Source: Candidatus Omnitrophota bacterium (lineage in GTDB: Bacteria > Omnitrophota > Gorgyraeia > Gygaellales > Profunditerraquicolaceae). Taken from it: 64,000 nucleotides of DNA. A program made the translations under genes and the position numbers. Shown here in pieces: positions 2,343 to 62,813 of the stretch. The stretch spans positions 89,083 to 153,082 of the forward strand of contig JAKLGJ010000003.1 of NCBI GenBank assembly GCA_022710715.1, given 5' to 3'. Below the pieces are notes generated by a model. That model worked only from the letters and a program-made list of their open reading frames with translations, searched no databases and had not been told where the DNA came from. Every line of letters begins with the position of its first letter. The first letter of the stretch is position 1.

Positions 2343-2344
2343 TA

Positions 2345-15473: not shown

Positions 15474-15509
15474 TGCTTTATGAAAGCGTTTTCAAACCAA
15501 AGGACAAAA

Positions 15510-18535: not shown

Positions 18536-18628
18536 AACAACAAAAATTATCCACAGGCGACCGCAGGGAGTCCCGCCCGAAGAGTATCCCCAGTGACAGT
18601 GGGAGAGTCCCGGACGGCCTGTGGATAA
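18536..18628 (-). terminator. Long hairpin of about 80 nt plus a T-tract, terminating giant gene A1. Its arms contain DnaA-box-like TTATCCACA motifs in inverted orientation.
   Basis: The arms are TTATCCACAGGCG...CGGCCTGTGGATAA, at 18547-18559 and 18614-18628. On the minus strand the structure is followed by TTTTTGTTGTT. It begins 4 nt after the A1 stop codon. Confidence 0.5.
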
Positions 18629-18631
18629 CTT

Positions 18632-31597: not shown

Positions 31598-31796
31598 TGA
31601 AAAAAACGTTCCCTTTGGTAACGCAGCCTCCCGCTGCATTTGGCAGCGGGACTGTCGCTTTGCGCCCCCCGATTACTCGAGGTTTGCCTTTATCAGTAGA
31701 ACTCTTCTTCTACTTACCTATTATTACTATTATATTTCCAACATATTAAGTATAGCACATTTTTGCTAAATTTCAACCTTACCAATTGCACAATTA

Positions 31797-31923
31797 GCAG
31801 ACGTTTTCCCCATCCGCATGTGGCACATTGACTTACAAAGATATTGTTCCGCACCGCCAAATTGACGCATAAATAATATTTTTGTAACCAATTGCCGCAC
31901 ATGCGGATGGGGAAAGCGTCTGC
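31797..31923. repeat. 127-nt intergenic inverted-repeat element, copy A. The arms are about 29 nt (GCAGACG(C)TTTCCCCATCCGCATGTGGCA) around an AT-rich core.
   Basis: It starts 2 nt after the stop codon of giant gene A2. The other copies, also exactly 127 nt, are at 42787-42913 and 62687-62813. The cores of A and B are identical (ATTGACGCATAAATAATATTTTTG). Confidence 0.75.
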
Positions 31924-31925
31924 GG

Positions 31926-34900
31926 TTAAAGGTTCAGGTCTCCGTAGCCGGGCATGGAATCTAGAGACTGATAAAGCTCTCGGCATGCGCTAAGCAATTT
32001 TTCCCGTTCCGCCGCATTCAATCCCGATTTCTCAGCCTTGGCCGTCAACTCGCTGACGGTTCTAAAAGCAAGCTCGGTTTGCGGCGCGCAAGCGCCCTCC
32101 GCCTGCAACTCTTTGTCTAAAGCCGCGTACCGCTGGCGATAAACCCCAAGGCTCGCAGCCAAAGGATGCGCCTGCCATTGCTCCGGAGTTAAAACGATCC
32201 TGTTCCGCTCACTGTTTTCCTTATCCAGCTTAAAGCTGGTTTGCTTGAAGCTGGCGGACATTTCGTTGCCATAGTGCCCGATCACTTCCGGTCCGTTGCC
32301 ATAGAAAAACCAACTATTCGCGAATTTCGTCAACGCCCGCACATACCTTAACATTTCATTCCGTTGTTCCGGAGAATACATCCCGGGATTCTCGGCGAGG
32401 AACTTCATCACCGGCCCGACAACGGTCTTTCGTATATCCCGATAAGCAGCGAACGGGTCATTTCCGTTCCCCAGCTGCAAAGATCTGGGAGTTCCATGCC
32501 CGCCGATCACCAGCAGATCGATAGATCCCGGTTCATTGGAATTTTTGATCCACTCCACGGCCTGGGTCAACGAATTGACTTCTTTGGTCCTTACTTCATA
32601 GCCGGAACTTTTCAGCTGTTCTTCAAGATCCCTTTCTTTGAATGCTCCATTATGATCGGAGGACGGCGTAAGGATCACCGCGATCTTTGTTTTTGCATCT
32701 TTTTCGATTGTTTCCCTCGCCGCTGTTCCACCCGCGACAAAACATTCCCCATCCCTTTTCACCGGCGCGCCCTCCATACGAACTTCCATTACCCCGTCAT
32801 AATGCACCGCATAATTCACCTTGTCGATCGCGCCTTTGTCACTGAAGTCTATCCGCATACTGCTGGAGGAATGCTGGGCGCCGAATGTCCGGCGGTCACC
32901 CAGGGCCTTGGACACTTCTGTCGCCAGATTGACATTATCGCCAGGCGTTACGGCTCCCGTAGAACAGCTGTTCAATATAATATCTGCATTCTCTTTCAAA
33001 TACGGACCGATCTCCTGCAATTGCGCCACGTTCTCCAGGCTCAATTTCGCGTCTTTCATCGACTCGCGCATCTGCTCGACGATATCCGGGATATGCCGGG
33101 AGATGTTCTCCAACTCCGCCTTACTCTGCGCAGACATCCCCAGCTCTTCCGGATAATGCTCTTCGAAAGTCCTTTCCCTGGCGGCTTCGGAGCCCGGCTT
33201 CTTTTCCGGCGCCGGCAGCAGATCATCAATAGCTGGCGCTTTAGCGTGAGTTTCCCGGTCAAAGGCAATCGCGTCCTCGGGACAATACCTGATCCACTCC
33301 CTCATCTGTTCCGCTACGGATTCTGACGCAAAACTGTATTCCTGCCGTAATTCCTTCGCTTTCTCCTGCCAGGCATTGATCTCATACAACTCATGTTCCA
33401 GCACCCGTTGATTAGCGGCATGCTCGGCATCCACATAAATAACCGCCTCACCGTACACCCTGCCCAGGCCGATATGCGCCAGCTGACCGGTTTTTTCGAG
33501 CAATCCTTCGATCGGAATAACCCGCGCAGCCGCACCGCAGCCTTCGGCTAAAGGATAGTTCTTAATATTGGTTTTGTCCGCAAGCAGATCGGCTGGCAGA
33601 TTGGCCTTAACATGCTCGTTTACCGCGGTATGCGTAGCTTTTTCCGCGCCGCCGGCAGCGAGATTGATATCCACTTCGTTTTGCGCGTCATCAGCCGCTT
33701 GCAGTTCCCTCCGACCGCTGTTTTCGGGGATCAGGTCTTTCTGCAGACGGATGTAATCGCGAATATCCAGCAGCTGATTATACGTTTCTTTGGCTTGCTC
33801 CAGCGCCTTCTGCCCCTTCTCTTTATTCTCGGCTTTACGCACAACTTGCAAAGGAGAAGCAGCCACCCGGTCCAGCTCTTTAATCGAGCTCCCGATCAAA
33901 TCAATCTGACGGTCGAGCTCTTCGAGCATGGATTCGCATTCCTGGCGGTTGATCGAACGCAGGTCAATGCGGGATTTCAGTATCCCTTCCGTAAACGGCC
34001 TGTGGATCTTTCCGATTTCCCACAGAATCTGGTTAGCCCGGTACGCGCTGGAGGTTCTGTCTTTCACCCAGTTTTCCGCCTTTGCCCCCAGCCATTCCTG
34101 CGCGTTGAGGAAACGATCCAGGGCGCTGTCGCCGATATGCTCCCACGGCCGGTCATGCATCAGATTCGGACTTGCAGACAACCCCAGGCCGTACGACATT
34201 GCCCCGGACGAATACAGATTAAAATGCTTAACCAGCCCTTCCGCCTTCCTGAACGCCTCTTCCACCGGAGTGAACACGAACTCATTCTCCGAGATCATCG
34301 GCAGCCAACCCCAGTTCTTATCCTGCACGCGCACGCCCATCGGGCCGAAATCATAATCCTGGCTGACCTTGATCTTCGCGGGATCTTTCTGCTGAACAAT
34401 CAGAGGAAGCAATTTCGGTATCGCTTCAGGCGAAGACACCTGCACATCGATCTCCCTGCCTTCGAGAAGATTATCCGGGATCTCGCCGAACAAGTTCTTC
34501 ACATCGAAAATATCCTGCAGATGCTCCAGGGAAATCTCATACTCTTCGGTAACACTGGAATAATCTTTAGCGGGATCGTACGGCCTGGATCCCGGGTCAA
34601 CCGTCTTGATCAGGAAATAGGGATCGCGTCCGGCAACAAACTGGATATCCACCACGCTGCCTTCCATGCCGCGCTTGCCACGAGAGAACGCATACGCGTA
34701 CAGCTTCATCGCCAGCTGGGCTTTCTGATTATTATTCAATCCGTCGAAGTTGTTCACCACGAAATCGAATATCTTCTTCTCGTTCTCGTTGCGCCAGGTC
34801 CTCCAGTCGTCATTGACTTTCTCTTCATACTGCACCCTGACCGACGCGCTCGGCAACTGCCCGCCGGACTCTTTGCCGATCTCGGTCAAACTGGTGGAAT

Positions 34901-37900
34901 CAGCTGTCATTTCGGCGTTCTTTTCACCACTCTTGCCGGAATGTTCCACCTCGTTGCGCGGAAAATGAATGATCCCTTCCACATCGAATCCCTGGTCCTT
35001 CAGATCGATGTAACCCGAGCGCTCCCCGGGTTCGGTAGAGGCGATCACGGAGTTGGAAATGCGGGTGATCCCGCTGAATCCGCTGCGGGCGCTGAATGCA
35101 TCCCACCCCTTCTGTCCTTCGCTGATCCCTGCGACAATGCGATGCTCGATCCCGTGGTCCTGGAGGCTCTGCGGGATCTGCGCGGGATCGTTGATATGCG
35201 CGTAGCCGGTGATCGCAACTGCTTTCGCGCCGGGATTCTTCTCCAGGAAATCGGAGATGTATTCTCCCATATATTTACCGCGATTCACCGCTTCCTCCTC
35301 GGCTGTCCATTCTTTCTTGCGCATGTCTTCGGGCATATCCATGAAGACCACATCCAGCCCCGCGTCTTGAGCGGCTTTGATCTGCTGCTTAAAGCGGTGC
35401 GATAAGCGGGTTCTCATGGCGATGACATCTGCGTCCTCGACTTTCAAATCCGACTGGATCTCGAAAATCGCATGCGTGGCGCCCGCATCCTTAAGCGCCT
35501 GCATCTGCCGCGCAAAACCCCGCTGCAGCCCGTTATTTCCGTGATTGGTATCTCCGATCACCAGCGCCCTGACGCCCTGCATCAACTCTGCGTAAGGCAC
35601 CTGCGCGCGCCAGCCCTTCTCTACCAGCGCGCCCCAGGGCGTATCCGTATGCATCCAATCGTAGAGGCTTTTTGGATTATTCATCAAAATACTGGTAAAC
35701 GCGTTTTGCCTGTTCGGCTCTTGTTGCGCGCGGCCGATCAATCCGCCGACCGCATCCTTGATCCTGGTCAGAACGGAGCCTTGCGCTTGAGCCTCTTTGT
35801 CCGGCACTGTCGGAAGGTTTGCCGCTGGGCCGTCGCTGGAGATGATGAAATCCGCGTCCCCGGGCGCGGCCTCGCAGTCCGCGCTTCTTTTTTCCGCTAC
35901 ATAGCCATTGCCGATCGTTCCCGAATCTCTGGAAATATCTCTCTCATACACATTACCCAGTATGAACGGCAGCATTCTTTTCAGCTCTTCACTCGGCCTG
36001 AAATGTACGCTTTCCTGTACCGGTTCCTCATGATACGTATATTCGATATCTTCTACCGCACCTTTGTCATCGAATTTCAACCTGAATGAAGCGGAATCGT
36101 GATGCGGAGCCAGGACTTTCCTGCTCACTGCAGCGCTGATTTTGTCCGCGAGATTCTCGCCCTCTCCTGCGGTGCTGCCGGTACTGCAGCTTTTCAGAAC
36201 CACCAAAGCATCGTCAGCCAGGCGATCGCTGATCTGGCTCAACCGCTCGGCGTTATTGAAATCCAGGGACATCTGCGCTGTTTTGTAAAGATACTCTTTC
36301 ATCCCTTCGGCCAGAACCGGATAGTCGGTTTTCATCTGCCGCAAAGCGCTAAGAGCCTGAATGATGGATTGCTGGCGGGCATAGATCGCCTGATAGCTTT
36401 CAGAAGCGGCAAAATAATCCGCCTCCAGCGGCTTTAAAGCCGCGTACCCGTCCAAGACCCGCTGCCATTTGGCATCGATTTCCGCCTGGGATTTGCCCTC
36501 GGATAACGCAGCATCATGCTCCCTATGGGCGTCTTCTATTACGCGCCTCTGGGCAAGCAGTTTATCCATTGCGGATTCCTGCGTTATTCTCGCCTGCGCG
36601 GCAGGAGCTTCGATCTCTTTCAATCTTTGCTCCCAGCTCTGCGTTTCTATGCCGGCCAGGGTCTTTTCGACGGCAGAGATAAATTCCTGCACCCCTCCTT
36701 CAAGATACCATTTTGCTCCGGCTACGCTGTTCAACTCACCCACGAGAGCTTCGATCTCTTTCTCCTGGTCGGCAGAAACAAGGTCCGGATTTTCCCGGAC
36801 CAACCGCTGCAAAGACTGCTCCAGGGACTGCACTGCCGCATAGGTCTTTTTGAATATCTGACTGACCTTATCCCTGCCGGCATCCATCCAGTCGGTAAAT
36901 TCCATTCCCTGCTTGCCGCCATGGCCGCCCAGAAGCAATAGATCGGCTTTCTGAACGAGAGTGGACTGTTTGATAAAATCGATCGCTTCATCCATATCTT
37001 TGACCACTTTGTGCGCCACGTCGTAACCGCGATCCAGCAGGGCCTGGACATGGTCATAACTCCCGGCAAAAGCGCCGTTCCAGTCGCTTTGCGGCAATAC
37101 CACCACCGCTTTTTTCTTCGCAGGCTCTTTGCCTTCCGCGCGCAAACCCTCGTTGTGAAATTCCTGCGCTTTCTGCGCGATTTCCCGCTGGCGCTCGGCG
37201 CCGGCTTCTTTGTCGTTCATCCACTCGCGCAGCTTATCGCCCAGTTTACCGTCGGCGATATCCCGATCGGTAACTATGCCTTTTTCTTTGGCGAATTGCT
37301 TCCAGGCGTTCAGTTCCGCGAGCTCATGCCGCGCCTTGGCCTCGTCGCGCGCGTAAACCGCGTTCTCCCCGCGGCCGGCGTGGTCAGCCTCGAAACGGCC
37401 GTCGATGATCACCAGCGTCCCGTCGGCTTCGATGCGCAGTTCGCCGTGTTCAGTCTGTATGCGGCCGCCGGCCTTCTCGACGCGCGCTCGCAGATCGAAA
37501 CGGCCGTCAGATCTTTTGCCCGCGCCGATCTCATTACCCAGCGTATCGATGGTCTGCGCGATCTTTCCCGCCTCATGATACGCCTCGTGCTGCGCGCGGG
37601 TCGAACCGCCGTTATTCCCGCTGGAAATGGCCGGATCAAGAAGCGTATCCGCGAGCCCGTTGACCATGCCTTCTAAATCATCTAACCCGGGCAGCCGTTC
37701 CACTTTTACAAATTCTTTTCCGATATTCCTGCTCAGATCATCCACATTATTCCGGTCGATCGCAGCTTTAAAAACAGTAATAATGCTCTGGCCGTTTTTG
37801 GCCGGATTGAAATTGGCGCCGACGCTCACCAGTACTTGTTTACCGTCGCCGAAATCGGTCATGAACTTGACTTTATCCTGGCCGGGAACCATCCAGCAGT

Positions 37901-40900
37901 CGCCGCGCTCTATGGCTTCCACCGTTTTAGCCAGCATATCCTGGGCAGACATCTCATTGCGCGCCAGCACATGTTTATCCACGGCATGGCTCATCCCGTA
38001 CGGCTTAACCCTGTTTTTCTTGCTCGATCCCTTGCCATTGAGCTCGGTAAGTTCGGCTGCCTGTCCATCGGAAATCCCCGGTTTGATCGCCACTTCGAAT
38101 ACGTCCCCGAACTCATGGCCGAACTTCTCTTCGATCATTTCCCTGGTCAATTCCGGGACTCCGATCGTGGTCACGGCGGTCTCCGCCATATCCAGTATAT
38201 CCTCATAGATTTTCTTATACTCCCGGCTATCCTCCCCGAAAGCATCTCTGGCCTTTCTCAACTCGGCTATTTTGGCGTCGATATCATTCTTTGCCTTGTT
38301 TAATCCGGATGCCAGATCATTGATGCCGATTTGGGATCCGACAACCGCGTCTTTCAGGCTGAAGGAGAACTTCGCCCACAAACTATTGGTATAAAATTCG
38401 TCTTCCAGCTTGGCGGCCGTTTGCTGTCGTATTTCCCGGGCCTCCTGCGAAAGGGTTTTGTCATTAAGCCAATCCTGCATCTTACCGCCCAGAACGCCCT
38501 GTTCGATATCCTGCTCTGTGGCGATCCCCTCTTTAACGCTGAATTCCTTCCAGGCGCCTGATTCCGCAAGCTGCTGTCGGGCTCCCTTGATATCCGCGGC
38601 ATACACCGCATTCTCATTCCGGCCGAAATGATCCGCGCCGAAACGTTTGTCGATCATGACCATCGTGCCGTCGTCTTCTATGTGCAGAGAACCCGTAGCA
38701 GTTTTGATCGTTCCGCCTGCAGCGTCGATCAAAGCCCTGAAGTCGTACTTATTGTCGCTGCGCAGCTGCGCTTTAAGCTCCGCGCCGATCGAGTTGACCA
38801 CTTCGCCGATCTTGTTCTGCTGGTGGAAAAGATCATGCTCGATCCGGGAAGAGGTATACAGCGGATTATAAGAAGGATTTTGCTTAACGGTTCCCGTGTA
38901 CCGCGGCACCATCATGAAGGGGATCCAGCTCAAGATGCCGGCGTCCTGGGCAGTGATCCCCAGATTGTCCCGCGTCCAGTCGTTGTTGAGCGCGGCGTCG
39001 GTCCCGGAGGTCAGTAACGAGAAAAACACCGCGTTATCAACGTGGTTATAGAGGCCGTCCAGGGTTCTGGGCGTATCCAGCAGCCAGTTCGGACGAGCAG
39101 CCAGTTCCGCAGCAGTTAATTCCGCGTCGGTTTTGATTGCGGCTTCTGATGTCGCAAGCCGGACATCCGTGCCTAGCGCGGTTTTCAGCGAACCGCGCAG
39201 ATACCCGTACTTGCCGGTGTTCGCCGCCCAGCGCGAAACCAAACCCTCGCCGCCCGGATCGAGCACACCGCTGGTAGCGCCGAATATTTCCGTAGCCGTG
39301 CCCAGCCACAAACCGGTATCTTTGGGAGAGCTTGCCGCGCTTAAAGCCATATCCTGGTACCAGGGCAGGTTTTCTTCGCCGCGCGGGCCTTTCATCTGCG
39401 CCAGGTGCGGATCCCAGTGCAGATTCAATTCGCCATTCTCATCGAACAGGAACGACTCGCCGAGTGATTCCAGGCCGGTGCCCACCGCGTGGAATAACGG
39501 ACCCACGCCGATAAACGTAGTTGCGCCGGTCAAAGAATCGGACGCAATCTTGCCGGGGACCTCGGCATAATTCTCCACAATCTTGAGCGTATTAGCTCCC
39601 CAGCGGGTCAATGTGCCGTAATTCTTAGGCGCTGCCTGCACCGTATTGGCTAACTCGCCCAGGCGCGTAGCTTTAGAAAAAATGCCTGCCCCCTGAATTA
39701 CGCCGGAGAACAGAAATCCGCTGCCGAACCCCTGTTTGGCCGATCTGGCCACCTGATCCCACTTGATCTCTTCGCCGCTGATCGCCGAATAAGCGATATC
39801 CGAAGCTGCGGACACCCCCGCCCAGACTGCGCCGCTCTTTGCCGCGCCCTGCACGAACCTGGCTGCGTTGAATCCTTTCTGCGTATCTGCGATACATCCG
39901 CTTAACGTCCCCGCCTTACTCAAAAGACTTTCCGAACGCACGGCAACGGTTAACGCCTCTTCGGCTGCGCCAAGTTTGGCAACCTGCCCCAGTTTCGCCG
40001 CTTTTGATCCGATCTGCGCTATCTTGCTGCCCACGGCAGCTTCTTCATCCCCGGGCCAGGGAGTCAACGCGGTCACGATCATCGCTCCCGTAGATACCGC
40101 ATCCAGCAGAGCGTACGTCTGCTCCGTACGGGTTAACGAACTCATCGCGTCTTGCGTGGCGGGCAATTTCTCGCGCATCTCATCCGTGGTAAAATAAATC
40201 TTTTCATCCTGCCCCGCCGATGCTGACGTAACCTGCTGCGCCTGCGGCCCCTGCCCCAGATACGCGTCCCATTTGTCGGTCGCAACAAACGCCGACGGTA
40301 TCGCGCGCAGATCGTTGATCCCCAGCGGAGCGGGCAGGCCGTTGATCCATCCGGAAGCTATATTCTGTCCGGCAACATTCCTGTATTCCTGCGTCTGGTA
40401 CGCTTCGGGATGAGCTTTAAGATAATCCTGCACTTGCTGCAACTGCGCCTGTTGTTCCCGGGTATCCGCTGCGCCAGGCATGATCTTGCCGATGATCAAA
40501 GCAGCGGGAATAAAAGCGCCCAATGCGCCATTGACGCCTGTCCGGACCGCAGACTGTGAATCAGCTTGAGCCAGTATCTCTTCTCCTTTAAGCGTTTTTT
40601 CCACCGAACCATCTTCCAGTTTGTTCCATTCATTGCACTGCTCCTGGAGCGAAGCTTCTTCGATCTTTGGGCTCTCATACCAGTAGGTCATCGAGCCGTT
40701 CTGGTCGATACCGCAGCCGATGCGGATAGTAGACGTACTTGACTGCGTGGGCATATCCACGATGCTCTCGGAAACCGGCCGCAACTCCTTGCCATGGACA
40801 TACCCCGTCTTGACCTGGTCGTTTTCGGTATAGGTGACTTTTTCTTCTTCGCCGTATAGCCAGCTGCTCACCGAATCCAGCAAAGGCACGTCATGCAGGT

Positions 40901-42644: not shown

Positions 42645-42786
42645 GAGTATTCCTCATATACTATGCTCCTCCTTATTTGTGAGACCCCTTCCCATGAGAG
42701 ATTCTCCCATAGGTACTACAAGTGTACCCCAAAAACCCCTCATTTCAATACTTCTACGACCTACTTTCGCAACCGCTTTCAAACCC

Positions 42787-42913
42787 GCAGACGCTTTCCC
42801 CATCCGCATGTAGCACAAAGATTTACAAAAATATTATTTGGCACCGCTAAATTGACGCATAAATAATATTTTTGCAACCGACTGCGGCACATGCGGATGG
42901 GGAAAGCGTCTGC
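42787..42913. repeat. 127-nt intergenic inverted-repeat element, copy B
   Basis: It ends 2 nt before the stop codon of giant gene B1 and lies upstream of the A2 start. Its arms and core match copy A. Confidence 0.75.
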
Positions 42914-42915
42914 GA

Positions 42916-53172: not shown

Positions 53173-53228
53173 CTTTTACTCCTTTTTAAAGTTTCAATTA
53201 AGTGAAAATAAAAAACGCCGCGATCTTT

Positions 53229-53251
53229 TTAGAACCGTGGCGTAATTCTAA
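53229..53251. promoter_or_regulatory. Palindromic site TTAGAA-CCGTGGCGTAA-TTCTAA, about 60 nt upstream of the B1 start codon
   Basis: Its counterpart upstream of B2 at 62565-62589 reads TTAAGAA-CCGTGGCGTAA-TTCTTAA. The spacer is identical and the arms carry compensatory changes. Confidence 0.5.
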
Positions 53252-53324
53252 CAGAAAATTTGTTCCTGTGTTTGAAAACGCTTTCAGCTTTTTATATAAA
53301 TAAGTATACCCTATAAAAAGCTAA

Positions 53325-53377
53325 TTTTCAAGTGGTGGGCGCTCCCTTATCCCCTTGTCGCACAAGGCTTAAGGGAA
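53325..53377 (-). terminator. GC-rich hairpin just downstream of the B2 stop, a putative terminator or 3' stabiliser
   Basis: GGTGGGCG...CCTTGTCGCACAAGG...CGCCCACC, an imperfect dyad. On the minus strand it is followed by a moderately T-rich run (TTGAAAATTAGCTTTTTATAGG). Confidence 0.4.
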
Positions 53378-53396
53378 ACGCCCACCTGTCTCCCAT

Positions 53397-56300
53397 TTAT
53401 GATATTGCCAGTTGGATAATTTCCTTCATTTCACCGGCAGTAGGAAGCGCACGCTCCTCTTCCATTTCCAGTATCTGCTTGATGAACAATACCGCTGTAT
53501 GCATCTGCTGCGTTGCATCTGCGCGGGCATTACATACCGCGACGAATTCTTTCAGCTCCCGGTACGGCATGGAGCCGGATTTCACTTTCTCCTGAATGTT
53601 CAACCATTTGGCGTCTAGTTCGGCCAGCGGCATCTTCATCGCCTGCGGCATTGACTGCAGGATCTGCGCCGGATTGACCGCGCCGATCACCGCCTGCGAC
53701 TGGATCGGCAGAGCCCGGAAATCCACGCCGCCGGTGTTATCAGGCGTCTTCTTGGCAGCGGCAGCGTCCGCTACTGCCTGCGCCGGGCCGGATTTCAGCA
53801 GCGATTTAAGCTTTTCAATGATCGCCGTAAATCTGCCGCCGTCATTTTCTCCCAACTCATTGAACAAAACCTTTTTAGCAGGTTCATTCAACTTGTCGAT
53901 ATTTTCTTCGATCAGCGCATACACAAAAGGCTGGTCTCCGGCCGCTTCCAATCCTCTTTCGGCGATTATCTTCTCTTCCGCCTTTGCGATATGCACTAAA
54001 GCTTCGGCCGTCTCGTCAAGATCATACCGGCCGTCTTCGAGTATACGCCAGAGAGCTCTGGCTTTGAGAATATCCTTCCCGTTATCGTTATAGTCCCAAA
54101 GAAGTTCCGCAATTTCCTGAACATTATTTTTCGTTTTTATCCCGGCCTGATCCATCACCAGCAGCAAAGCGACTTGAGCTTTGATGCTGAACGGGGCAAT
54201 TTTACCCAACGCTGTTATCGCTTCAGAAACTCTCTTTACTTCGCCCGATTCAGGAATATAATCCTGCTCTCTGCTGAAACGGGTCAAAAGCATCGGCACG
54301 TACAAAGTGAGACCAAGCTTCTCCTGGACGATTTTACGGCTGACGTCCTGACTGTCTGTTCTGATTATCCTGCTATTGATCAAACCTAAGGTCACTCTGG
54401 CGGGTTCGCTTGAGGCAAACTCGTCAAGTCCGGTCACGGCGTCGATACGCTGTTTCAATGCCCCGTCGGCCTCGATGTCAATGAACAGACGGAGCATCCC
54501 GATGGTGAAAATGATCTTATTCTTCACATATTCTCTGGCAAAAGGATCTTTATTTTCGATCCCTTCCATCAGATTTGCCAGATACTGCGCATACTGTTTG
54601 TTTTCCAGCATATAATTCATATCTTCAATTTCGGCAATGAGAGGCTCGCCGACTAACGTGCGAAGCTTGATCGAGATATTTTCGTTAACCAGCGGATCTT
54701 TTCCGCCGTCGAGGTCGTCCAGGTCCAATCTGGCAATAGCATTACGGTACACAGCTTGCACTGCTTCGTAATTACTGCTGCTATTTTCTATGACGTCGAT
54801 TTCCTCTCTGATGTTTCGCATCTGGCCCGCAGTCCTGTTCGCGAGCGACATACTGCCATACATCGGCATGTTTCGCAAAGACCGATAATTCGCCCGCAGT
54901 TTTTCAGTTTTCTTATTTGCATCATCAAGGGCGCCGTCTATATTCTTAATCATCTGTGTGAAGAAAATCTTCAATCCCGCGCTGTCCCTGCTTTCTACAA
55001 ATTGTCTTACTTCCCTCAAATCGACCGTGCCGTTTGACCCCTCTTTCATTTCCTCAACGATTTCGGCCTTGAATCGATCGATCTTCAGGTCATGCGCCAG
55101 CGCATCCGCGAAGGCCTTGAGCGCTGCATTGGTCTCAAGAGGATTGTTGGATTCGGCAAAGAATGCATCGTCTTCCACTATGCCCGCGTTGATCAATCTT
55201 ACCAGTTCTTCAGCAACCGCCTCGCGGATTCTCTGCGCATCCCGCGCCTCATCCGGATCATTGATCAACTGGTAGAACGTTGACAACGCCGGACCATTGA
55301 TCGACTTTTCACTTCTGAATATCGTTCCCAAAGCCCGCACTATGGTTTCCCTTAAAGAAACGTGGGCGGCCGATTTTGAACCCAACAACAAAGCTGTGAT
55401 CATTTCAGCTTTCCGTTGGTCGTTAGCTTTCACCAAAGTAACCATATCATTAACCGTCTCGGTCAAATCGGATATCGTACTATTCTTGCTGGCGAATCTA
55501 GTCAGCGCTATGCTTGAATTCAATGCTAAAGAATCGATAACAGCCGGATTCACGGCTTTCAACGTTTCGCGCAAACCTGTCAGAAAAGCAATGTTATTCA
55601 TTAACCCTTCATAAACAACTGCCTTTTCAAGAATGGAATAATCATTGTTTGCTACGGCGATCATCGTTAGCGCTTCCGCAGCAATAGCTGTTTCCCCCTG
55701 CGAGCTGCGATCAAAGTTCGCGATGATGAAATCAGCTGCCGGGAGATAACCCAATTTACCGAGTTGCTGAATAATTTCAATCTTTTCTTCGAAATCCATC
55801 TTTCCATAAGCATTGAACTGCTTGGTGAGCTCCTGGAACCTTGCCATTTGGACCCGCCGCTCTTTGGTCAACCCGCCGTCAGAGACCTCGCCATTGATCT
55901 CGTCAAGTTCAGCCAGGGCCAGTTCGGCCTGCTTGCGCACTGCCATGGACTCCTGGTCATTTTCGTTGTAATTATTATTCAGAACATCATGCAGAACATC
56001 TCTGGCGTACTGCGTGTTGATCCGTTTTAACGCCCAGATCGCTTCCCGCTTGACTTCGAGAGACGCGATAGCGCCTTTACTCAAGATCGCCGCCAGGCTC
56101 TGAACAGCCGCCACAGGCTCGAACCGGAACAGATCAGCCACAGCCCGGATCGCGGTAATGCGCGTTCTTTCCGCTCTGGGATCCGCCCTGTAGGTCTCTC
56201 CCTGTCTCACCTGCATCGCCGCAATCACCGCCCGCAGAACATCAACATTGCCGACTTCAGTCAGCTTCTGGATCGCTGCCCTGCGCAACCCCGTAGACTT

Positions 56301-59300
56301 GTTCTGCAGAACATCCAGCATCGCGTACATAACTATTTCAATATCACCGCTGTAGTCCTTTAAGATGTTAACGATATTAAGCTTATCGTGAAATTCTCCT
56401 AATGTTGCATTGCGCTGATTAAGCTCCTGATTATAGAATCTGATCTCGACATCCTGGACCTTCGTTCCTCCGTCAAAAACGTCCGCGTCCTGTTCAATCG
56501 CCGAAGCTAAAATCGTGAATAAAGCAGCAACTGCAGCTTCTTTGGCTGCTTCATTTTCGTTATTACTGCCTATTATCCTGACCATCGACATGGCTTCATC
56601 TAGATTACTATCCACTGCGGTCTTTTCACAGGCTCGCGTGACCAGGGAAAAAGCGCCCCAGGTGTAATCTGTCCTCCAATGGCTCCAGGCAATCAAACCT
56701 ATACCCATAAAAGCAAACTCTGGTTCAACCGGCCCCATCCGGGTATACAGATCGGCAAACTCCGAGAGGCCCATTTTAAGTTCGGGAGTCACTTCCACCT
56801 TGGACTTCCCCGAGGCAACATCCCGGAGAAATACTGCAAACTCCCTGGCTTCTTTCTGCACATCGCCTATCGTGCCTTCATCAGCCGCTCTAATATCGTC
56901 AATGCTTAAATATCTAAAATAAGTCTTCGAATTCTGCTTTTTTAAATTCTCGATTATCGTTTTATTGGTAGTGCGCAACGCATAGTCCGCATTATCAGAC
57001 AGTCGTCTGATTGCCAGATCAAGAACTCTGTCGTCTGCGATATCTCCCACAAAAGCATCGTAATTATTCTCGATCAGCTTGATATCATCGCGGAACATCC
57101 TGGTGATGCCTGCGTAGTGTGACGACGCTTGTCCATCTCCTTGAGCGATGAACTGAATAATCCGCAGGCCTCTTTCCATCTGGGGTATCAATTCCCTCAC
57201 GACCTTAGCGCTGCCGCCGTCGGCTACGGCTTCAGGCTGCACGGGTAAGCGAACGGTCTCCAGATCCCTGGCGAAACGATTGAGGTTTTTAATATTTTCA
57301 TTGAGCGTAGCTATACGCGGTTCAAACGTTCTCACCTGCTCCAACTGATCGTTTCGCTGATGAATATAGGGCGCCCACTCTTTAACCTGTTTATCAGACG
57401 GTCTTTCGCCACGCCAAGCAGCTTCAATACTATCGGCAATACGCTTATTCTCCTGGGCCGACAATAACAGTTGCTGTTTGTGCTGAATCGTGAGATCCAA
57501 TTCATCCTGCAAAGTCTGAATAAGCTCGTCTACGAAATTGATAAGCGCCTTCTGGTTCTTGATTCCTTTCAATTCGGCACGCTGATCGGCGGTAAATTCG
57601 ACGGCCTCTTCGATCCGGCCGGCGAATTTCTGCACCTCGCTCTTAGCGTCGAAGATCAACCCGAATTCAGCTGCTTTAAGGATGTCCAACGTTAAATCCT
57701 GCAACGCCAGATCCCCGTGTTTAACCGCAATGCTCTTTATAATTTCTTCTTTATCAGACGGGAAATATACATTCAAACCGTTGGTCCAGGCCAGATAACG
57801 GATATGCTGCTCAATATCCGCATCTTTATCCTTCACCCGTATCGTCTGGAGATTAGGCTTAACCGCCCTTCCTTCCCACAACGAGAGCTCCCAGGCATAC
57901 TTACCGGTCAACAAATCCGGCAACTCGCGAAAATAATACGGAGATTCCCAATCATGCTTGCCGCCGTCATTGAGCTCCGAAACATGCACGACTTCGCCTG
58001 TGTTTCCCACACTTCCGTAGTATACCTGCCCTTCGAGATTATTCTTGGGTAAACCCAGCTGGTTGGCGCGATCCATATATATTGCCGCCAGCATACTTGC
58101 TTCTTGATTAACACTCGAACTGAAAAGCGCGTCCTTAACGCCCATTCCAAAGACTTCTTCGAACGTTCCTTGAATTGTTATCTGCACATCCTGGGCTACT
58201 TCGTGAAAATAGTTGGTTTCTTTGACCGTAAACGTTTTGCCTTTCAGATTCGCCGGCTTGCTCGCATTCTCTCTGCCTTTACCGAATTTGGCAAATTCAA
58301 CCGCGCTGTCCTCCTTAGCCCAGGACAGCGGTTTGCTGATATCATCTTCCGAGACCATATCCGGCTTACCGAACACCTTGAACTCCACCGGCTCGGTGCT
58401 TTTCGCTGCATCTAAAGTCAGTTGGGGAATCGAAGTCCACGCATCTTCAATAGTATCGCCCATCAGCCGTATTGACTGAATAGTATCTTTATAGATCGGC
58501 GCGAACTCGTCGCTGTCAAGATCCTTGACATACAGCCAGAACGGAAAATAATCGTTGTTCAAATATTCGAATTTACAATCCCACTCGACGCCGTCCTTGA
58601 AAACGACAGTGATCTTTTGCCCCTTGAAAGGCTCAACCAGTTTAGCCTGGACGGCCAATCCGAAATTCTCCATTGACAGCCCTGTCCGCAATCCCGATTG
58701 CAACTCCTGGACGGAAGGCAAGCCGGCTTTTTTGACCAGGCGGTCAAGGAAAAACCGGTACATTTTATTGCTTAGTACGATCGCGATCACACCCGCGCCC
58801 ATTGCCGCTGCGAAAGCCAAAGCGAATCCAAACGGCATAAGCGCCGCGCCAAGCACTATAATCGTCGCCGTAGAAACGGCCGCCGAATACTTGATCGCTT
58901 TATCTTTCAGATCTGCGAGTTGAGAATCCGAAAGCTTATCCTTCAAATTCCCGCCGTCTCCGGTTTCCATTCCGTCATTCCTCAGCGAGGTTTCCGGCGC
59001 ATAATTATCTATTATTTTGTCTGTTACCCCCAACAATCCGGTAAATACAACCCCACCCAGGACAATTCCCATCGCATATTGAGCCAAGCTAATATTCGGG
59101 TTAGCGATCATCATATTACCGGCCAAGAATGAGCCAAGGATCATCCGTCCCGGGAAAGTCAACACCAAATAGTCGGTAATCTGACGCACTATTTCCTTAC
59201 TTACTATTTTAGTCGCCATCCATATCAATGCGTCATATGCGAGGCCGCCCACGATACTGCCCATCGCATAGTGCGCGAGAGTATTTGTCGGATCAGTGAT

Positions 59301-62300
59301 CATCGATAGGCTCATAAGGGTCGAACCAACCAGAAAACGTCCGGAGTGAGTAACGGTTAGAAAATCAAAAAGACTCCGGTATACTTCTTTGCTTTTGCGA
59401 TTGCCGCCGTCCGGCGAGCCGACCAGGAACACGTCGTCGGCAGCAGGAATCACCCGCTCATTGCCCTTGTGCTGGCCGTTGGGGTCAAGGCCGTCTTTTC
59501 CCACAATGATCAGCCACAGCCCGATGTCGTTTTTGTCGCGATCGACTATCACTGCAGTGTCGTAAACTTCTCCACCGTTGAGCTCCGCCTGCATCCACCT
59601 GTACCCGCTCATGGTCAGGACGCCCAGATTTTTCAGTGCCTTAAGCAATTCAAAACGGATTTCCTGCCGCGTGTCGGCGTTCACATCCTCATCCGTATAC
59701 ACGTTGATATATATATTGTCGTTTTTCTTAAGCTTCGACCAATCGATCGTTTGATCCTGGCCGGCGTACTCCTGGGCTCTTTTCACCGAGATAACCGGGT
59801 TCTTGATCCCTTTTGCGGTCAGCACCCTCTCCAGTTCGTCGATCACGTTGACTTTGTTCGATTCAAGCAGCGGAGACATAAACTGTTTAGGCAGTGTGAA
59901 CGACTCGCGGTTAAGAATGGCGCTTGTCTCTTGCAGCGTCAACTGTGCTGACCCTTCTAAATCAAGCGGATCAAGTTTAAAATATTTAGGATCTGCATAA
60001 GCGATAAATCCAAGATATCGTCCCACCAGAGTATAAATATTTCTGTCATTAGCGAGGGACGCCATGATTTCCATTCCCGCAAGAATAGCCTTGGCTTTCT
60101 TTGCACTGGCTTGCGTTTCAAAAAGTCCTTCCTCACGCAGCATCTTCTCTGCCGAAGCGACCTTGTTTGATGAATCCCTAACCCGATGAGCGCAAGTACT
60201 CACAATTTGAGCAGCACTATTAAATTCATCTTCATTTAGTTCATGCTCAGTCAAAACTTTAACGATTGCCTGTATCTGTTTTTCGATCTGCTTTCCATAA
60301 GAGCTTAGACTATCCCTATGCACGTCCAAGTGCGATACGCTAGCCAAGTAGTCAGACACAAACTTAGCTCTCTGCGCCGAAACAACAGTCAGCCGGGCTT
60401 CCTTCTCCTCCTCTTCAGCAGCCTGATTGGGAGCAAAATAATACTCCTCTTTGAGCATGCTCATGATATCAGGCAATTTTTGATTTATTTTGTGGTGAAC
60501 ATACCTGGCTGCAAGAAAGACTGCAGCGATCCCGACAGAGACACCCACCATCACCGCCGCAGAGACGCCCAATAATCCCATAGTCATTAAAGCCGGAAAG
60601 GCAACAAAGCTGAACCCAAAAATGCTGGTTATCGGGGAAGTCCTCGTGCCCATGATATACATCAACAAATCGATATCCGTCCGATTCAACATCTTGTTCC
60701 TGGACAAGACTTCTCTGACCGTACCGCGGTTCAATTCCTTTCCGGGAATACTTCTCAACTCCTTGATCACCTCGCCGAACGGCCGCGAATTCTTGGCCAG
60801 GATTGGATCAATGGTCAATTGCGTCCCTATTTCGCGGACAAAGGTATTCAATACCAGATACCTTTTAGCCGATAAAAATAATAAAAAACCGCCTATCAGA
60901 AACATGGGTACCCCTGCTATCAGAGTACCGCTTATAGAAAGGAAAGCGCCCACCCCAAGAATCATCGTAGCCTGACCCATTCCAAGCGCCGATTGTTTCC
61001 GAGCTTCGTCGAACAATGTTTTTAAGGCAGTGAGGCTGCGCGCGCTGTTCAATCCTCTCTCCTGCAATTCAAATACGGTTTTGTATACTTGATTCGCTGA
61101 ATATGACTGCGCTTCAGGCTTGATCTCGTTGAACTTCTCGAAAATCTGCTGATTCTCCGCATCTGCTTTCCCGCCGTCCGGCCCCTTCTCATCCTGTGGG
61201 GGAGCCTTAAATTCTTCGGCGACCCGGTCTCTGGGCAAAGCTGCGCCGCCGGCTTTCAGAGGCATCTTCGACACGGCAAGTGCGAGTTCAGCTTCGAGCC
61301 CATCATCAATAATCCTGCCGTCCGGCTTCACTTTGATCAAACCTTCTTCGAAGCGGGTGCCGGCAGGAATTTCTACGGTCGGACGGGAGATCGCTTCGTA
61401 ATTCTGCGCGCCGCCGGCCTTCAATGTGAAAGCTGACGGATCTATATCGGCAAACCTGATGCCGCCGCTGAAGTACTGGCGGATAATCATGCCCGTGGGA
61501 GTTGAAACAGTCTCGCTGATATTGTATTCGCCCTTCTCGAATGATCTCTTGTAATCATTGAAATACGTGTCCCTGGACCAGGCTTTGGCGCTGGTCAAGC
61601 CGGTCAGGTCGCGCTGGTCGATCTTTGATGCGGCGCTGCCTTCCTGGCCGCGGTATTTCTCCTTGAACCACTGCGCCAGAACCAGAGAATAATACACCTG
61701 GCGCAATGCGGCATACTTTTTCGACGAGTTGACTTCGCGGGTAAGTTTCGGAAGGATCTCTTTACGGATGATCGCGGAAGAATATTCGTTGAGCTGCTTG
61801 ATCTTGGGATCGTTGGACTGGAACAACGCGTTGTTGGGAAGCCAATCCTGCTCCAGCATGACTTTCAAAGTGGCTTTAAAAATGTAAGCGCTGGCAGGAG
61901 TTTCGCGCACCAGGATCTCGCCCGGAACAATCCAGGGGCGGGTGATGGTGGGAATGGTAATGTCCTGACGGCCGAAGATCTCTTCGGCTTTGGAATAAAG
62001 TTTGTTCCAGTAATTCTTCCCCTCTTTGGTCTTGGGGGAAGTAAAAGCAGCCATGTCTTTCTTCAGCTGCAGATCGGCAGCAAGCAGAATACGGCCGACT
62101 TCGGTTCTCTCCAGCCAGGGGTCGATAACCTGATCTTTGGCATCCGGGCGCAAATTAACCCAGAAAGTGGAATTCGGCAGAGCGATCCCTATATTGAAAT
62201 AGGAAACCAGTTCTTTAGTGGTTAGTTGGACCTGCTGCGGCTTGATCTTGCGCGCATCGCCTTTGTCCAGAAGCAGGTTGAAATCCTGGCTTTTCTGGTC

Positions 62301-62468
62301 AAAGCTGATGCTGCGCAACTGCACCGGGCGGAATTTGTCCGGGGCGACATAGCCGTTGATGTATGTCGGAATGTTGAATTGCGGAGCGACTTGAGCGAAA
62401 CCTGATTGTTCAAGAACCAGACAGAAAACTACTGCGAATGCGACAATGCGTTTTACTAATTTGAACAT
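53397..62468 (-). CDS. Giant modular membrane/surface protein B2, about 3020 aa (3036 aa from the track's start at 62507). It is a paralogue of B1.
   Basis: I prefer the ATG at 62468, which has an AAGGAG RBS 7 nt upstream and gives MFKLVKRIVAFAVVFCLVLEQSGFA, aligning with the B1 N-terminus. The family B N-terminal domain is at about 61420-62468. The central shared block is at about 59400-61180 (TM cluster plus LTLQETSAILN...FLVGSPDGG), with near-identical DNA stretches to B1, for example 46441-46470 versus 60458-60487. It has multiple internal TM clusters. HEAT/ARM-like alpha-helical repeats occupy the C-terminal third. The family B C-terminal domain is at 53397-53715. Confidence 0.8.
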   Translation of the reverse strand: MFKLVKRIVAFAVVFCLVLEQSGFAQVAPQFNIPTYINGYVAPDKFRPVQLRSISFDQKSQDFNLLLDKGDARKIKPQQVQLTTKELVSYFNIGIALPNSTFWVNLRPDAKDQVIDPWLERTEVGRILLAADLQLKKDMAAFTSPKTKEGKNYWNKLYSKAEEIFGRQDITIPTITRPWIVPGEILVRETPASAYIFKATLKVMLEQDWLPNNALFQSNDPKIKQLNEYSSAIIRKEILPKLTREVNSSKKYAALRQVYYSLVLAQWFKEKYRGQEGSAASKIDQRDLTGLTSAKAWSRDTYFNDYKRSFEKGEYNISETVSTPTGMIIRQYFSGGIRFADIDPSAFTLKAGGAQNYEAISRPTVEIPAGTRFEEGLIKVKPDGRIIDDGLEAELALAVSKMPLKAGGAALPRDRVAEEFKAPPQDEKGPDGGKADAENQQIFEKFNEIKPEAQSYSANQVYKTVFELQERGLNSARSLTALKTLFDEARKQSALGMGQATMILGVGAFLSISGTLIAGVPMFLIGGFLLFLSAKRYLVLNTFVREIGTQLTIDPILAKNSRPFGEVIKELRSIPGKELNRGTVREVLSRNKMLNRTDIDLLMYIMGTRTSPITSIFGFSFVAFPALMTMGLLGVSAAVMVGVSVGIAAVFLAARYVHHKINQKLPDIMSMLKEEYYFAPNQAAEEEEKEARLTVVSAQRAKFVSDYLASVSHLDVHRDSLSSYGKQIEKQIQAIVKVLTEHELNEDEFNSAAQIVSTCAHRVRDSSNKVASAEKMLREEGLFETQASAKKAKAILAGMEIMASLANDRNIYTLVGRYLGFIAYADPKYFKLDPLDLEGSAQLTLQETSAILNRESFTLPKQFMSPLLESNKVNVIDELERVLTAKGIKNPVISVKRAQEYAGQDQTIDWSKLKKNDNIYINVYTDEDVNADTRQEIRFELLKALKNLGVLTMSGYRWMQAELNGGEVYDTAVIVDRDKNDIGLWLIIVGKDGLDPNGQHKGNERVIPAADDVFLVGSPDGGNRKSKEVYRSLFDFLTVTHSGRFLVGSTLMSLSMITDPTNTLAHYAMGSIVGGLAYDALIWMATKIVSKEIVRQITDYLVLTFPGRMILGSFLAGNMMIANPNISLAQYAMGIVLGGVVFTGLLGVTDKIIDNYAPETSLRNDGMETGDGGNLKDKLSDSQLADLKDKAIKYSAAVSTATIIVLGAALMPFGFALAFAAAMGAGVIAIVLSNKMYRFFLDRLVKKAGLPSVQELQSGLRTGLSMENFGLAVQAKLVEPFKGQKITVVFKDGVEWDCKFEYLNNDYFPFWLYVKDLDSDEFAPIYKDTIQSIRLMGDTIEDAWTSIPQLTLDAAKSTEPVEFKVFGKPDMVSEDDISKPLSWAKEDSAVEFAKFGKGRENASKPANLKGKTFTVKETNYFHEVAQDVQITIQGTFEEVFGMGVKDALFSSSVNQEASMLAAIYMDRANQLGLPKNNLEGQVYYGSVGNTGEVVHVSELNDGGKHDWESPYYFRELPDLLTGKYAWELSLWEGRAVKPNLQTIRVKDKDADIEQHIRYLAWTNGLNVYFPSDKEEIIKSIAVKHGDLALQDLTLDILKAAEFGLIFDAKSEVQKFAGRIEEAVEFTADQRAELKGIKNQKALINFVDELIQTLQDELDLTIQHKQQLLLSAQENKRIADSIEAAWRGERPSDKQVKEWAPYIHQRNDQLEQVRTFEPRIATLNENIKNLNRFARDLETVRLPVQPEAVADGGSAKVVRELIPQMERGLRIIQFIAQGDGQASSHYAGITRMFRDDIKLIENNYDAFVGDIADDRVLDLAIRRLSDNADYALRTTNKTIIENLKKQNSKTYFRYLSIDDIRAADEGTIGDVQKEAREFAVFLRDVASGKSKVEVTPELKMGLSEFADLYTRMGPVEPEFAFMGIGLIAWSHWRTDYTWGAFSLVTRACEKTAVDSNLDEAMSMVRIIGSNNENEAAKEAAVAALFTILASAIEQDADVFDGGTKVQDVEIRFYNQELNQRNATLGEFHDKLNIVNILKDYSGDIEIVMYAMLDVLQNKSTGLRRAAIQKLTEVGNVDVLRAVIAAMQVRQGETYRADPRAERTRITAIRAVADLFRFEPVAAVQSLAAILSKGAIASLEVKREAIWALKRINTQYARDVLHDVLNNNYNENDQESMAVRKQAELALAELDEINGEVSDGGLTKERRVQMARFQELTKQFNAYGKMDFEEKIEIIQQLGKLGYLPAADFIIANFDRSSQGETAIAAEALTMIAVANNDYSILEKAVVYEGLMNNIAFLTGLRETLKAVNPAVIDSLALNSSIALTRFASKNSTISDLTETVNDMVTLVKANDQRKAEMITALLLGSKSAAHVSLRETIVRALGTIFRSEKSINGPALSTFYQLINDPDEARDAQRIREAVAEELVRLINAGIVEDDAFFAESNNPLETNAALKAFADALAHDLKIDRFKAEIVEEMKEGSNGTVDLREVRQFVESRDSAGLKIFFTQMIKNIDGALDDANKKTEKLRANYRSLRNMPMYGSMSLANRTAGQMRNIREEIDVIENSSSNYEAVQAVYRNAIARLDLDDLDGGKDPLVNENISIKLRTLVGEPLIAEIEDMNYMLENKQYAQYLANLMEGIENKDPFAREYVKNKIIFTIGMLRLFIDIEADGALKQRIDAVTGLDEFASSEPARVTLGLINSRIIRTDSQDVSRKIVQEKLGLTLYVPMLLTRFSREQDYIPESGEVKRVSEAITALGKIAPFSIKAQVALLLVMDQAGIKTKNNVQEIAELLWDYNDNGKDILKARALWRILEDGRYDLDETAEALVHIAKAEEKIIAERGLEAAGDQPFVYALIEENIDKLNEPAKKVLFNELGENDGGRFTAIIEKLKSLLKSGPAQAVADAAAAKKTPDNTGGVDFRALPIQSQAVIGAVNPAQILQSMPQAMKMPLAELDAKWLNIQEKVKSGSMPYRELKEFVAVCNARADATQQMHTAVLFIKQILEMEEERALPTAGEMKEIIQLAIS

Positions 62469-62564
62469 GGGAGACTCCTTCTCTTTGTCTCCCCTCCCCC
62501 ACAACATTGTGTTTTAAAAAAAACCCGGTTTTTAAAAGACTCTTTGCTTGCGCAATAGAGATCG

Positions 62565-62589
62565 ATTAAGAACCGTGGCGTAATTCTTA
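62565..62589. promoter_or_regulatory. Palindromic site TTAAGAA-CCGTGGCGTAA-TTCTTAA upstream of B2
   Basis: See 53229-53251. It has the same position relative to the start codon. Confidence 0.5.
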
Positions 62590-62686
62590 ATTGACTAACT
62601 AACTCCTGATTGTACTAACAAGTATACGGATTACTGGACTGATTACAAGACGAAATATCAATATTATTGAAACCGCTTTCAAAACA

Positions 62687-62813
62687 GCAGACGCTTTCCT
62701 CATCCCAATGCGGCACAATGCATTACAATAATATTCTATATACGCCAATTCTTAAGCCGGTAATAATATCATTGCAACCTATTGCCGCATTTAAAGATGG
62801 GGAAAGCGTCTGC
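62687..62813. repeat. 127-nt intergenic inverted-repeat element, copy C (more diverged core)
   Basis: The outer arms GCAGACGCTTTCC / GGGGAAAGCGTCTGC are conserved. It overlaps the stop codon of the deaminase gene by 1 nt and lies upstream of B2. Confidence 0.65.

Follow-up and report, generated by a model that had tools for sequence, protein, structure and literature searches.

A repeated palindrome in a giant-gene array

Giant genes are a known trait of Omnitrophota (bioRxiv 10.1101/2023.11.21.568195). We analysed a 64,000-nt stretch of DNA (the window; GCA_022710715.1, contig JAKLGJ010000003.1, positions 89,083 to 153,082) from a clonal Candidatus Omnitrophota metagenome-assembled genome (MAG), together with ~9 kb fetched on each side (L001, L052), ~82 kb overall. 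The window and its flanks contain an array of giant genes (G1-G5), every gene of which lies on the minus strand. Three copies (A, B and C) of a 127-nt palindromic element stand within this array, each taking up the whole gap that separates the stop codon ending one transcription unit from the promoter module ahead of the next giant gene. Read along the minus strand, a 138-aa gene is followed by a small terminator-like hairpin with a T-rich run after it, a promoter, G5 (2893 aa) and, after a short gap, a deaminase gene. The deaminase is followed by copy C, an operator-like palindrome, a promoter, a leader and G4; G4 by a 51-nt GC-rich hairpin, a promoter, a leader and G3; and G3 by copy B, an imperfect operator, a promoter and G2. 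The array ends with G2, copy A, a promoter, a c-di-GMP-I-GGC riboswitch with its terminator, G1, and a long hairpin with a T-run that precedes a CBM96 gene.

The three copies lie where an earlier note on this DNA had placed them and align without gaps (Table 1). As that note had also described, they abut the preceding stop codons and precede the next giant gene: the stops of G2 (TAA, 31926-31928), G3 (TAA, 42916-42918) and the deaminase (TAG, 62813-62815) are followed by the element at distances of 2, 2 and -1 nt, the first base of copy C being the G of the deaminase TAG. Copies A and B share 89.0% identity overall and differ at 14 positions, 11 of which fall in the core that had been described as identical between them; their longest identical runs are 26-27 nt. 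Copy C is 69-70% identical to A and to B. The inverted-repeat arms, previously put at about 29 nt, measured 52-54 nt in a repeat search. A common orientation was clear for A and B (89% identity direct, 74% reversed), whereas the orientation of C, also said to be the same, is near a tie (72% versus 70%).

Each element is bounded by GCAGACG...CGTCTGC. Over the six arms together, substitutions affect 2 of the 108 positions in the outer 18 nt (~98% conservation), and the interior is much less conserved. GC content is 30-33% in the core versus 55-62% in the arms. The 18-nt arm end GATGGGGAAAGCGTCTGC, allowing up to 3 mismatches, occurred at six sites in the window where 0.04 were expected, and these were both arms of each copy. 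A covariance model built from the three copies scored them at 121-144 bits.

Copies B and C were 100% identical in four independent assemblies (the MEGAHIT assembly ENA ERZ27257456, a 1.62-Mb contig of JGI 3300010429, and the NCBI MAGs GCA_035453765.1 and GCA_035390565.1), all of which match the window at 100% over 30 kb including both copies. Copy C was also identical in five additional contigs of the species, and A and B were present in both NCBI MAGs with model scores equal to those in the window. This identity among independent assemblies indicates that the copies are not an assembly artefact. No structural variants or empty sites were found among the public assemblies of the species, all being identical to the window. 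Sequences assembled from different samples by different assemblers (ENA, JGI, Logan and NCBI; L001-L006, L013-L016) are 100% identical to the window within positions 32916-63172, four of them over 30 kb, and a single Omnitrophota clone appears to be widespread in sampled metagenomes.

The element was present at three of the five junctions preceding G1-G5 and at none of the ~35 other junctions in the 82 kb. The corresponding hypergeometric value, roughly 1e-3, was calculated post hoc and cannot tell a functional placement from local copying. All three copies lie within 31 kb, and none was found in the other ~50 kb of the genome scanned. The 3′ ends of the genes that precede the copies (G2, G3 and the deaminase) are mutually unrelated, indicating that the copies were not carried along with duplicated gene ends.

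Folding and maintained pairing of the copies

Each copy was predicted to fold on the sense (minus) strand into a single hairpin of 45-53 pairs, with free energies of -62 to -77 kcal/mol (A, -66.8 kcal/mol, z -9.6; B, -77.2 kcal/mol, z -14.3; C, -62.2 kcal/mol, z -9.3). Since ~50 of 63 possible pairs form, the whole element constitutes one long hairpin. Fold z-scores against shuffled sequences ranged from -7.8 to -14.3, and 0 of 200 shuffles folded as well. The consensus structure contains 50 pairs, five of them with compensatory changes in which both sides were altered. Of the 38 differences between copies B and C, 23 fall in stem columns; even so, B retains 50/50 and C 44/50 of the consensus pairs. 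When as many substitutions are placed at random, 34 pairs (B to C) or 31 pairs (C to B) are left, so that the excess of kept pairs has a p of about 5e-5 or lower.

The pairing was also asymmetric between the strands. In the consensus structure, which was itself derived from the sense strand, 17 cells are G·U on the minus strand versus 4 that are G·U only on the plus strand. The sense fold was more stable than the plus-strand fold for B and C (plus strand, -68.1 and -48.0 kcal/mol, respectively). Together, the G·U asymmetry and the better sense fold of B and C point to a single-stranded sense form, namely the 3′ end of the upstream mRNA. The position of the element, 0-2 nt past a stop codon and upstream of the next promoter, likewise suggests that transcription of the upstream gene includes it as the end of the mRNA.

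Several observations weigh against a role as a 3′-end RNA hairpin. Copy A folds better on the plus strand (-71.5 versus -66.8 kcal/mol). The covariation and G·U statistics are weak, being drawn from just three copies of which two are close relatives, and the G·U counts correspond to ~12-13 versus 4 independent events, which is marginally significant, with fewer when the apical helix is left out. Palindromes can moreover remain complementary through template-switch mutation or repair, without selection, and the ~98% conservation of the outer 18 nt suggests sequence-specific recognition rather than structure alone. The copies also lack a proper U-tract, the first 8 nt past the stem holding 4 (A), 3 (B) and 5 (C) U's, although short U-runs are found there (UGUUUUG after C, GGGUUUG after B). 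A terminator scan called none of A, B and C, in part owing to limits on loop and stem size that leave out hairpins of this length, while elsewhere the host uses terminators made of a hairpin and a T-run (in the riboswitch platform and at the end of G1). Of the four readings in the earlier note, that of a structured intergenic element serving as a 3′ stabiliser or terminator was nevertheless the best supported, by its position, its pairing and its G·U bias.

Control regions and hairpins at the junctions

Every giant gene is preceded by a site of the form TTGAAA/TTGTAA-16/17-TATACT/TACACT, predicted as a promoter from matches to the sigma70 consensus only, and these sites lie 20, 38 and 38 nt beyond copies A, B and C. 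No promoter conserved across the copies was found inside A, B or C. A flank common to B and C (TTTGAAAGCGGTT), 3 nt beyond the element in both, is explained by the operator-like palindrome. The window holds four occurrences of this palindrome, TGAAA-N4-TTTCA (core GAAAGCGnTTTC), versus 0.02 expected, all of them between genes (15327-15340, 15481-15494, 53273-53286 and 62668-62681; the imperfect version beside B is not among the four), and its sites neighbour TPS secretion genes and giant genes. No operator was found beside copy A. From its recurrence here and in a relative, TGAAA-N4-TTTCA is a candidate operator, with a possible regulon of giant genes and TPS genes.

Table 1. Features of the array, with positions in the window (nt) and strand.
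Feature	Position	Strand	Remarks
Copy A	31797..31923	-	2 nt past G2 stop; 20 nt before G1 promoter -35; covariance model 139.8 bits
Copy B	42787..42913	-	2 nt past G3 stop; 3 nt before imperfect operator-like palindrome; 38 nt to -35 of G2 promoter; 143.8 bits
Copy C	62687..62813	-	most divergent; 3 nt before flank motif TTTGAAAGCGGTT; 5 nt to 14-nt TGAAA-N4-TTTCA operator; 38 nt to -35 of G4 promoter; 121.2 bits
Giant gene G1	18632..31546	-	4304 aa per NCBI; copy A upstream of its promoter and riboswitch
Giant gene G2	31926..42644	-	open reading frame (ORF) of 3572 aa; annotated 3430 aa from 42218; Peptidase_C39 domain; B upstream, A downstream
Giant gene G3	42916..53172	-	3418 aa; copy B after stop
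Giant gene G4	53397..62507	-	ORF 3036 aa; annotated 3023 aa from 62468; copy C upstream of its promoter
TadA-like nucleoside/tRNA adenosine deaminase	62813..63295	-	160 aa; stop overlaps copy C; 43 nt downstream of G5
Sigma70-like promoter of G1	31749..31776	-	TTGAAA-16-TATACT; consensus match
Sigma70-like promoter of G2	42721..42748	-	TTGAAA-16-TACACT; consensus match
Sigma70-like promoter of G3	53303..53331	-	TTGAAA-17-TATACT; consensus match
Sigma70-like promoter of G4	62621..62648	-	TTGTAA-16-TATACT; consensus match
Operator-like palindrome TGAAACCGCTTTCA	62668..62681	.	adjoins copy C; imperfect version beside B at 42771-42783
c-di-GMP-I-GGC riboswitch aptamer in G1 leader	31613..31697	-	RF03167, 60.2 bits versus gathering threshold 59; downstream of copy A and G1 promoter
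Riboswitch terminator	31565-31598	-	hairpin and T-run expression platform in G1 leader
51-nt GC-rich hairpin	53335..53385	-	22 bp, 11 nt past G4 stop; -36.2 kcal/mol, z -5.4
Long hairpin and T-run after G1 stop	18535..18629	-	canonical-looking terminator closing the array

The nearest syntenic relative (GCA_029571225.1, locus L057) keeps the gene order CBM96-TpsB-TpsA-PilZ, with orthologues that are 46-63% identical. Its locus carries the operator palindrome at 888-901, 4493-4506 and 6496-6509, and a variant lies upstream of the homologue in another relative (L062, ~5889-5902). Ahead of the operator at the orthologous L057 promoter, and 5 nt away from it, stands AAAGCGTCT, which is exactly the last 9 nt of the promoter-proximal arm of the element (before the final GC) and occurs a single time in the 13-kb locus. 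Over the 60 nt further upstream, compared in fixed register, 28/60 positions match copy C (null 17.7 +/- 3.3, p about 0.003), a post hoc and only suggestive result given that the test was devised after a 7-mer had been seen in register; the same comparison against A or B was not significant (p about 0.09). Unconstrained local alignment (Smith-Waterman) against shuffles gave no significant evidence of a half-element remnant in L057.

The presence of AAAGCGTCT in a relative without the palindrome indicates that the element lacks a clean transposon boundary on its promoter side. A motif associated with the promoter may account in part for the strong conservation of the arm ends. Two readings of L057 were considered. 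In one, the palindrome would have arisen in place when DNA upstream of a G4-type promoter was duplicated in inverted orientation, and other junctions would have received copies later; in the other, the relative would retain half of an old element.

Hairpins are also found at the equivalent junctions that lack the element. The junction between G4 and G3, the one giant-gene junction without the element, has the 51-nt hairpin in its place. Apart from the three copies, the covariance model matched this hairpin alone (16.5 bits; E 0.12 over 139 kb), aligning its outer 16 pairs with those of the element. It is a functional analogue of the element and possibly a degenerate, internally deleted relative. 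In L057, two ordinary hairpins, one with a T-run, follow the gene that lies upstream of the G3/G4 homologue, and there is no palindrome. The hairpins and terminators at equivalent junctions indicate that the element occupies the slot of a terminator or 3′ hairpin. In a further Omnitrophota locus (L011), two unrelated hairpin elements of 125-135 nt were observed at 1501-1635 (-64.8 kcal/mol, z -8.3) and 16482-16606 (-32.6 kcal/mol, z -5.4). One stands 4 nt past a stop codon, and the next intergenic spacer holds the other. Many members of the phylum may have long 3′ hairpins.

Downstream of the promoters, the leaders carry further predicted control elements. The first listed ATG of G1 (31639) falls inside the riboswitch aptamer; the real start is the ATG at 31546, in agreement with the NCBI call. 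A motif, GCCACGGTTCT, is invariant in the leaders of G3 (53173-53302) and G4 (62469-62620) and in homologues (L057 995-1005, L060 5906-5916). By eye it appears to pair with a segment further downstream that immediately precedes a T-run; no consensus pair was predicted by RNAalifold from a poor alignment, and the leaders had no Rfam match at E<=1. This leader motif is a candidate conserved attenuator or a candidate ops-like site for a processive antiterminator of the giant genes.

The giant genes are themselves related in part. An N-terminal domain (~400 aa) and a C-terminal domain (~115 aa) are common to G3, G4 and G5, and a central region is common to G1 and G2. A Peptidase_C39-like domain lies near the G2 N-terminus (residues 166-257, E 1e-12), and precomputed domain matches include Response_reg in G3 and Glyco_hydro_9 in G5. 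In L057 a 640-aa protein (1089-3011) holds only the G3/G4 N-terminal (~63% identity) and C-terminal (~42%) domains, in a syntenic locus with CBM96, TpsB, TpsA, three small ORFs and PilZ, and the giant genes therefore look like internal expansions or duplications of a modest ancestral gene. Homologues of the deaminase and of the giant proteins carry the source names Candidatus Omnitrophota or Omnitrophica, with the nearest deaminase outside the clone sharing just 71% identity. Approximately 7-9 kb left of the window (L052 18033-21482), an AbiEii toxin-like gene stands with genes for RadC and for the R subunit of a type I restriction system in what looks like a small defence island, in which no integrase was seen.

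Relation to known repeats, and competing explanations

No further copy was detected by the covariance model in the window, in both flanks or in any relative's locus examined. The deaminase-syntenic loci of relatives (L055, L056) contained neither giant genes nor the element, and the element was likewise absent from the loci of G3/G4 N-terminal-domain homologues (L057-L062); these homologues were sampled with the G3 N-terminal domain, a search in which no listed protein exceeded 724 aa and G3, G4 and G5 themselves were not listed. The two-arm pattern gave 0 matches among 185,579 GTDB species representatives (this species not among them), where the single-arm 18-mer gave 35 singletons in unrelated taxa, none extending past ~26 nt of the arm and the three longest all lying in coding sequence. 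In JGI metagenome contigs the two-arm pattern matched just two unrelated palindromes (L007, L008), and of the two matches of the arm pattern in viral contigs, both by chance, one lay within a phage tRNA gene (L010) and the other in an unrelated sequence (L009). In the IMG/VR contig L010 (4600-4690) the 18-nt arm sequence falls in the D-arm/anticodon stem of a phage tRNA-like gene, indicating that single-arm searches pick up unrelated tRNA genes.

Searches with blastn found no match among plasmids and phages, and none (word 11) among 5,426 complete E. coli genomes, which carry ERIC, so membership of that family was rejected. Translations of the element's open frames had 0 matches at E<=10 in a 15-billion-protein collection, though frames are open across A and B; such a search would detect copies overlapped by called ORFs. 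Rfam returned only sub-threshold matches to plant microRNA precursors (38 and 34.6 bits versus thresholds of 80 and 140), an identity rejected as a generic long-hairpin match. CRISPR, retron and group II intron were also rejected, there being no repeats-with-spacers layout and no reverse transcriptase or Cas genes. A term search of two papers on Omnitrophota giant genes found no mention of intergenic palindromes, inverted repeats, hairpins or riboswitches. The sequence family is thus new, having no match in any collection searched, while its kind, the long palindromic intergenic repeat at gene 3′ ends, is well known.

Among repeats of this kind, ERICs are reportedly imperfect palindromes of ~127 bp. 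They are found in transcribed intergenic regions, often at gene 3′ ends, where their long RNA hairpins alter mRNA fate and levels (PMC10969869). The Omnitrophota element resembles ERIC in length, palindromy, intergenic 3′-end placement and long hairpin, but has an unrelated sequence, belongs to another phylum and is known from three clustered copies rather than tens to hundreds of dispersed ones. Correia repeat-enclosed elements, miniature transposable elements with inverted repeats (MITEs) found in Neisseria, have a TA target duplication, an IHF site and outward promoters, and occur in hundreds of copies. They are 100-155 bp long with terminal inverted repeats, are co-transcribed with their neighbours into a hairpin that is an RNase III substrate, and are able to insulate or alter adjacent gene expression (PMC2649163, PMC10969869). 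The element differs from them in having no duplication, no promoter conserved across its copies and an unrelated sequence. SPRITE and other terminator-like MITEs, as well as REP/BIME, are repeated hairpins located after genes, with a known or proposed role as terminators or 3′ stabilisers (PMC10969869, PMC3184786). SPRITE has a true Rho-independent terminator, whereas the Omnitrophota element lacks a full U-tract. REPs are 20-40 nt long and RAYT-dependent, in contrast to a 50-bp stem with no RAYT (Y1 transposase) in the locus; assignment to REP/BIME with RAYT was rejected on the 127-nt length and the absence of a PF01797 match in the species' 82 kb.

From this comparison, we tentatively favour, at just short of an even chance, a lineage-specific palindromic repeat family of the ERIC, Correia or SPRITE kind that acts as a 3′-end RNA hairpin, whether terminator, insulator or stabiliser. 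Transcription would run through the element as the 3′ end of the upstream mRNA, and the resulting RNA would fold into a ~50-bp hairpin. This hairpin could stop or pause RNA polymerase, weakly aided by the short U-runs, and/or block 3′-exonucleases and/or be cut by RNase III. The 3′ end of the 10-kb messages would thereby be defined, and the control of the next gene (promoter, operator, riboswitch or leader attenuator) would be insulated from read-through. These effects on termination, insulation and stability are inferred by analogy with Correia, ERIC, REP and SPRITE (PMC10969869, PMC2649163, PMC3184786). As to origin, the element could be a MITE-like insertion, or an inverted duplication of promoter-upstream DNA that was copied during expansion of the array.

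The second of these origins can be carried further, to a home-grown super-terminator or insulator that was never a transposon: an inverted duplication upstream of a G4-type promoter, spread with the array and kept as an RNA hairpin. The relative would then have kept, at matching register, AAAGCGTCT and the operator as the un-duplicated half. Polymerases on 10-kb genes, possibly made termination-resistant via the GCCACGGTTCT leader, would need an exceptionally strong stop, and each giant gene would thereby stay under its own c-di-GMP or leader control. We hold this version to be improbable.

The element might alternatively be selfish or neutral DNA, a functionless non-autonomous MITE or locally duplicated palindrome that persists only where 127 bp are tolerated in tight junctions, its palindromy being kept by transposase requirements or by template-switch homogenisation. 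We judge this unlikely, though deserving of serious attention. The MITE-like form proposed in the earlier note does fit, as the element, at 127 nt, falls in the 50-500 bp range of MITEs, has an AT-rich core and no coding capacity, and ends in all copies in conserved, near-perfect inverted repeats of 18 nt. Its clustering, as from local hopping or duplication, its absence from the relatives examined and the placement of B and C, both 3 nt from their common promoter-side flank motif, also favour this explanation. However, there was no target-site duplication, in that no direct repeat of at least 2 nt abuts both ends of any copy, and no transposase, integrase or recombinase family was found among the called genes of the ~82 kb (Pfam on the window proteins and precomputed Pfam lists). 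The searches described above yielded no parent insertion sequence, family member or dispersed copies among species representatives, metagenome and viral contigs, plasmids or phages, no ORF with an element translation, and no copies at the other junctions. The promoter-proximal end is also not a clean insertion boundary, and the relative (50-60% amino-acid identity), which has the last 9 nt of one arm and no palindrome, does not offer a clean empty site. MITE membership is therefore unproven.

A regulatory element acting at the DNA level, with arm ends bound by protein (e.g. the TGAAA-N4-TTTCA regulator) or extruded as a cruciform and modulating the promoters 20-38 bp downstream, would explain why the outer 18 nt are far more conserved than the interior and why the last 9 nt of the arm are kept beside the operator in the relative. 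It would also fit the resemblance of the arm end GGAAAGCGT to an operator half-site (TGAAAGCGT at 15481), and the excess of the operator palindrome in the window together with its position next to C and, imperfectly, B. Paired protein sites would not need compensatory upkeep of the inner stem, however, and the G·U asymmetry points to a single-stranded form. Moreover, copy A has no adjoining operator, G3 and G5 have the same promoter type and no element, and inverted half-sites 100 bp apart would be an unusual operator layout. The probability of this explanation seems to us low.

Still less can be said for a recombination site, either attC/VCR-like or homologous, that mediates cassette exchange, excision or tandem amplification of the giant genes, which we regard as highly improbable. 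The layout of gene, stop and imperfect inverted repeat in a co-oriented array does resemble that of attC/VCR, as does the length, which is near the ~123-126 nt given in the earlier note for long Vibrio attC sites, and G2 is bracketed by the direct copies A and B. Yet the identical runs between A and B extend to only 26-27 nt, and all fetched contigs (<=30 kb each, from several samples and assemblers) were 100% identical without rearrangement. The nearby tyrosine recombinase or intI that the earlier note had proposed to look for was not found among the called genes of the ~82 kb, and its failure to find attC core sites was confirmed, there being no RYYYAAC/GTTRRRY site at the element ends. Neither the plus-strand flanks (GGTTAAAG, GATTACAA, TAATAGAG) nor the minus-strand flanks (TAATTGTG, GGGTTTGA, TGTTTTGA) fit GTTRRRY in register. 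In place of promoterless cassettes served by a common Pc, each downstream giant gene of ~10 kb has its own predicted promoter and leader, and the pairing is far more perfect than in attC, with no conserved extrahelical bases. With no intI or attI near the array, no core sites and self-promoted genes, an integron attC identity was rejected.

The setting of the element is unusual in combining a giant-gene array in an uncultured phylum, exact abutment on stop codons, strongly maintained pairing and a hint of in-situ origin. In the resulting picture of the locus, the giant genes form separate units, every one of them with a predicted promoter and leader to itself, and a long hairpin parts most units from the next; a c-di-GMP riboswitch belongs to one unit and a conserved attenuator-like leader to two. 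If the element is a low-copy MITE-like relic, it is an ordinary feature, and the neighbouring operator and leader motifs would be the more useful leads. If it is a functional stop or insulator, it would show how 10-kb messages are delimited in a compact genome, and would provide a further example, from an uncultured phylum, of a repeat family recruited for the delimiting of messages.

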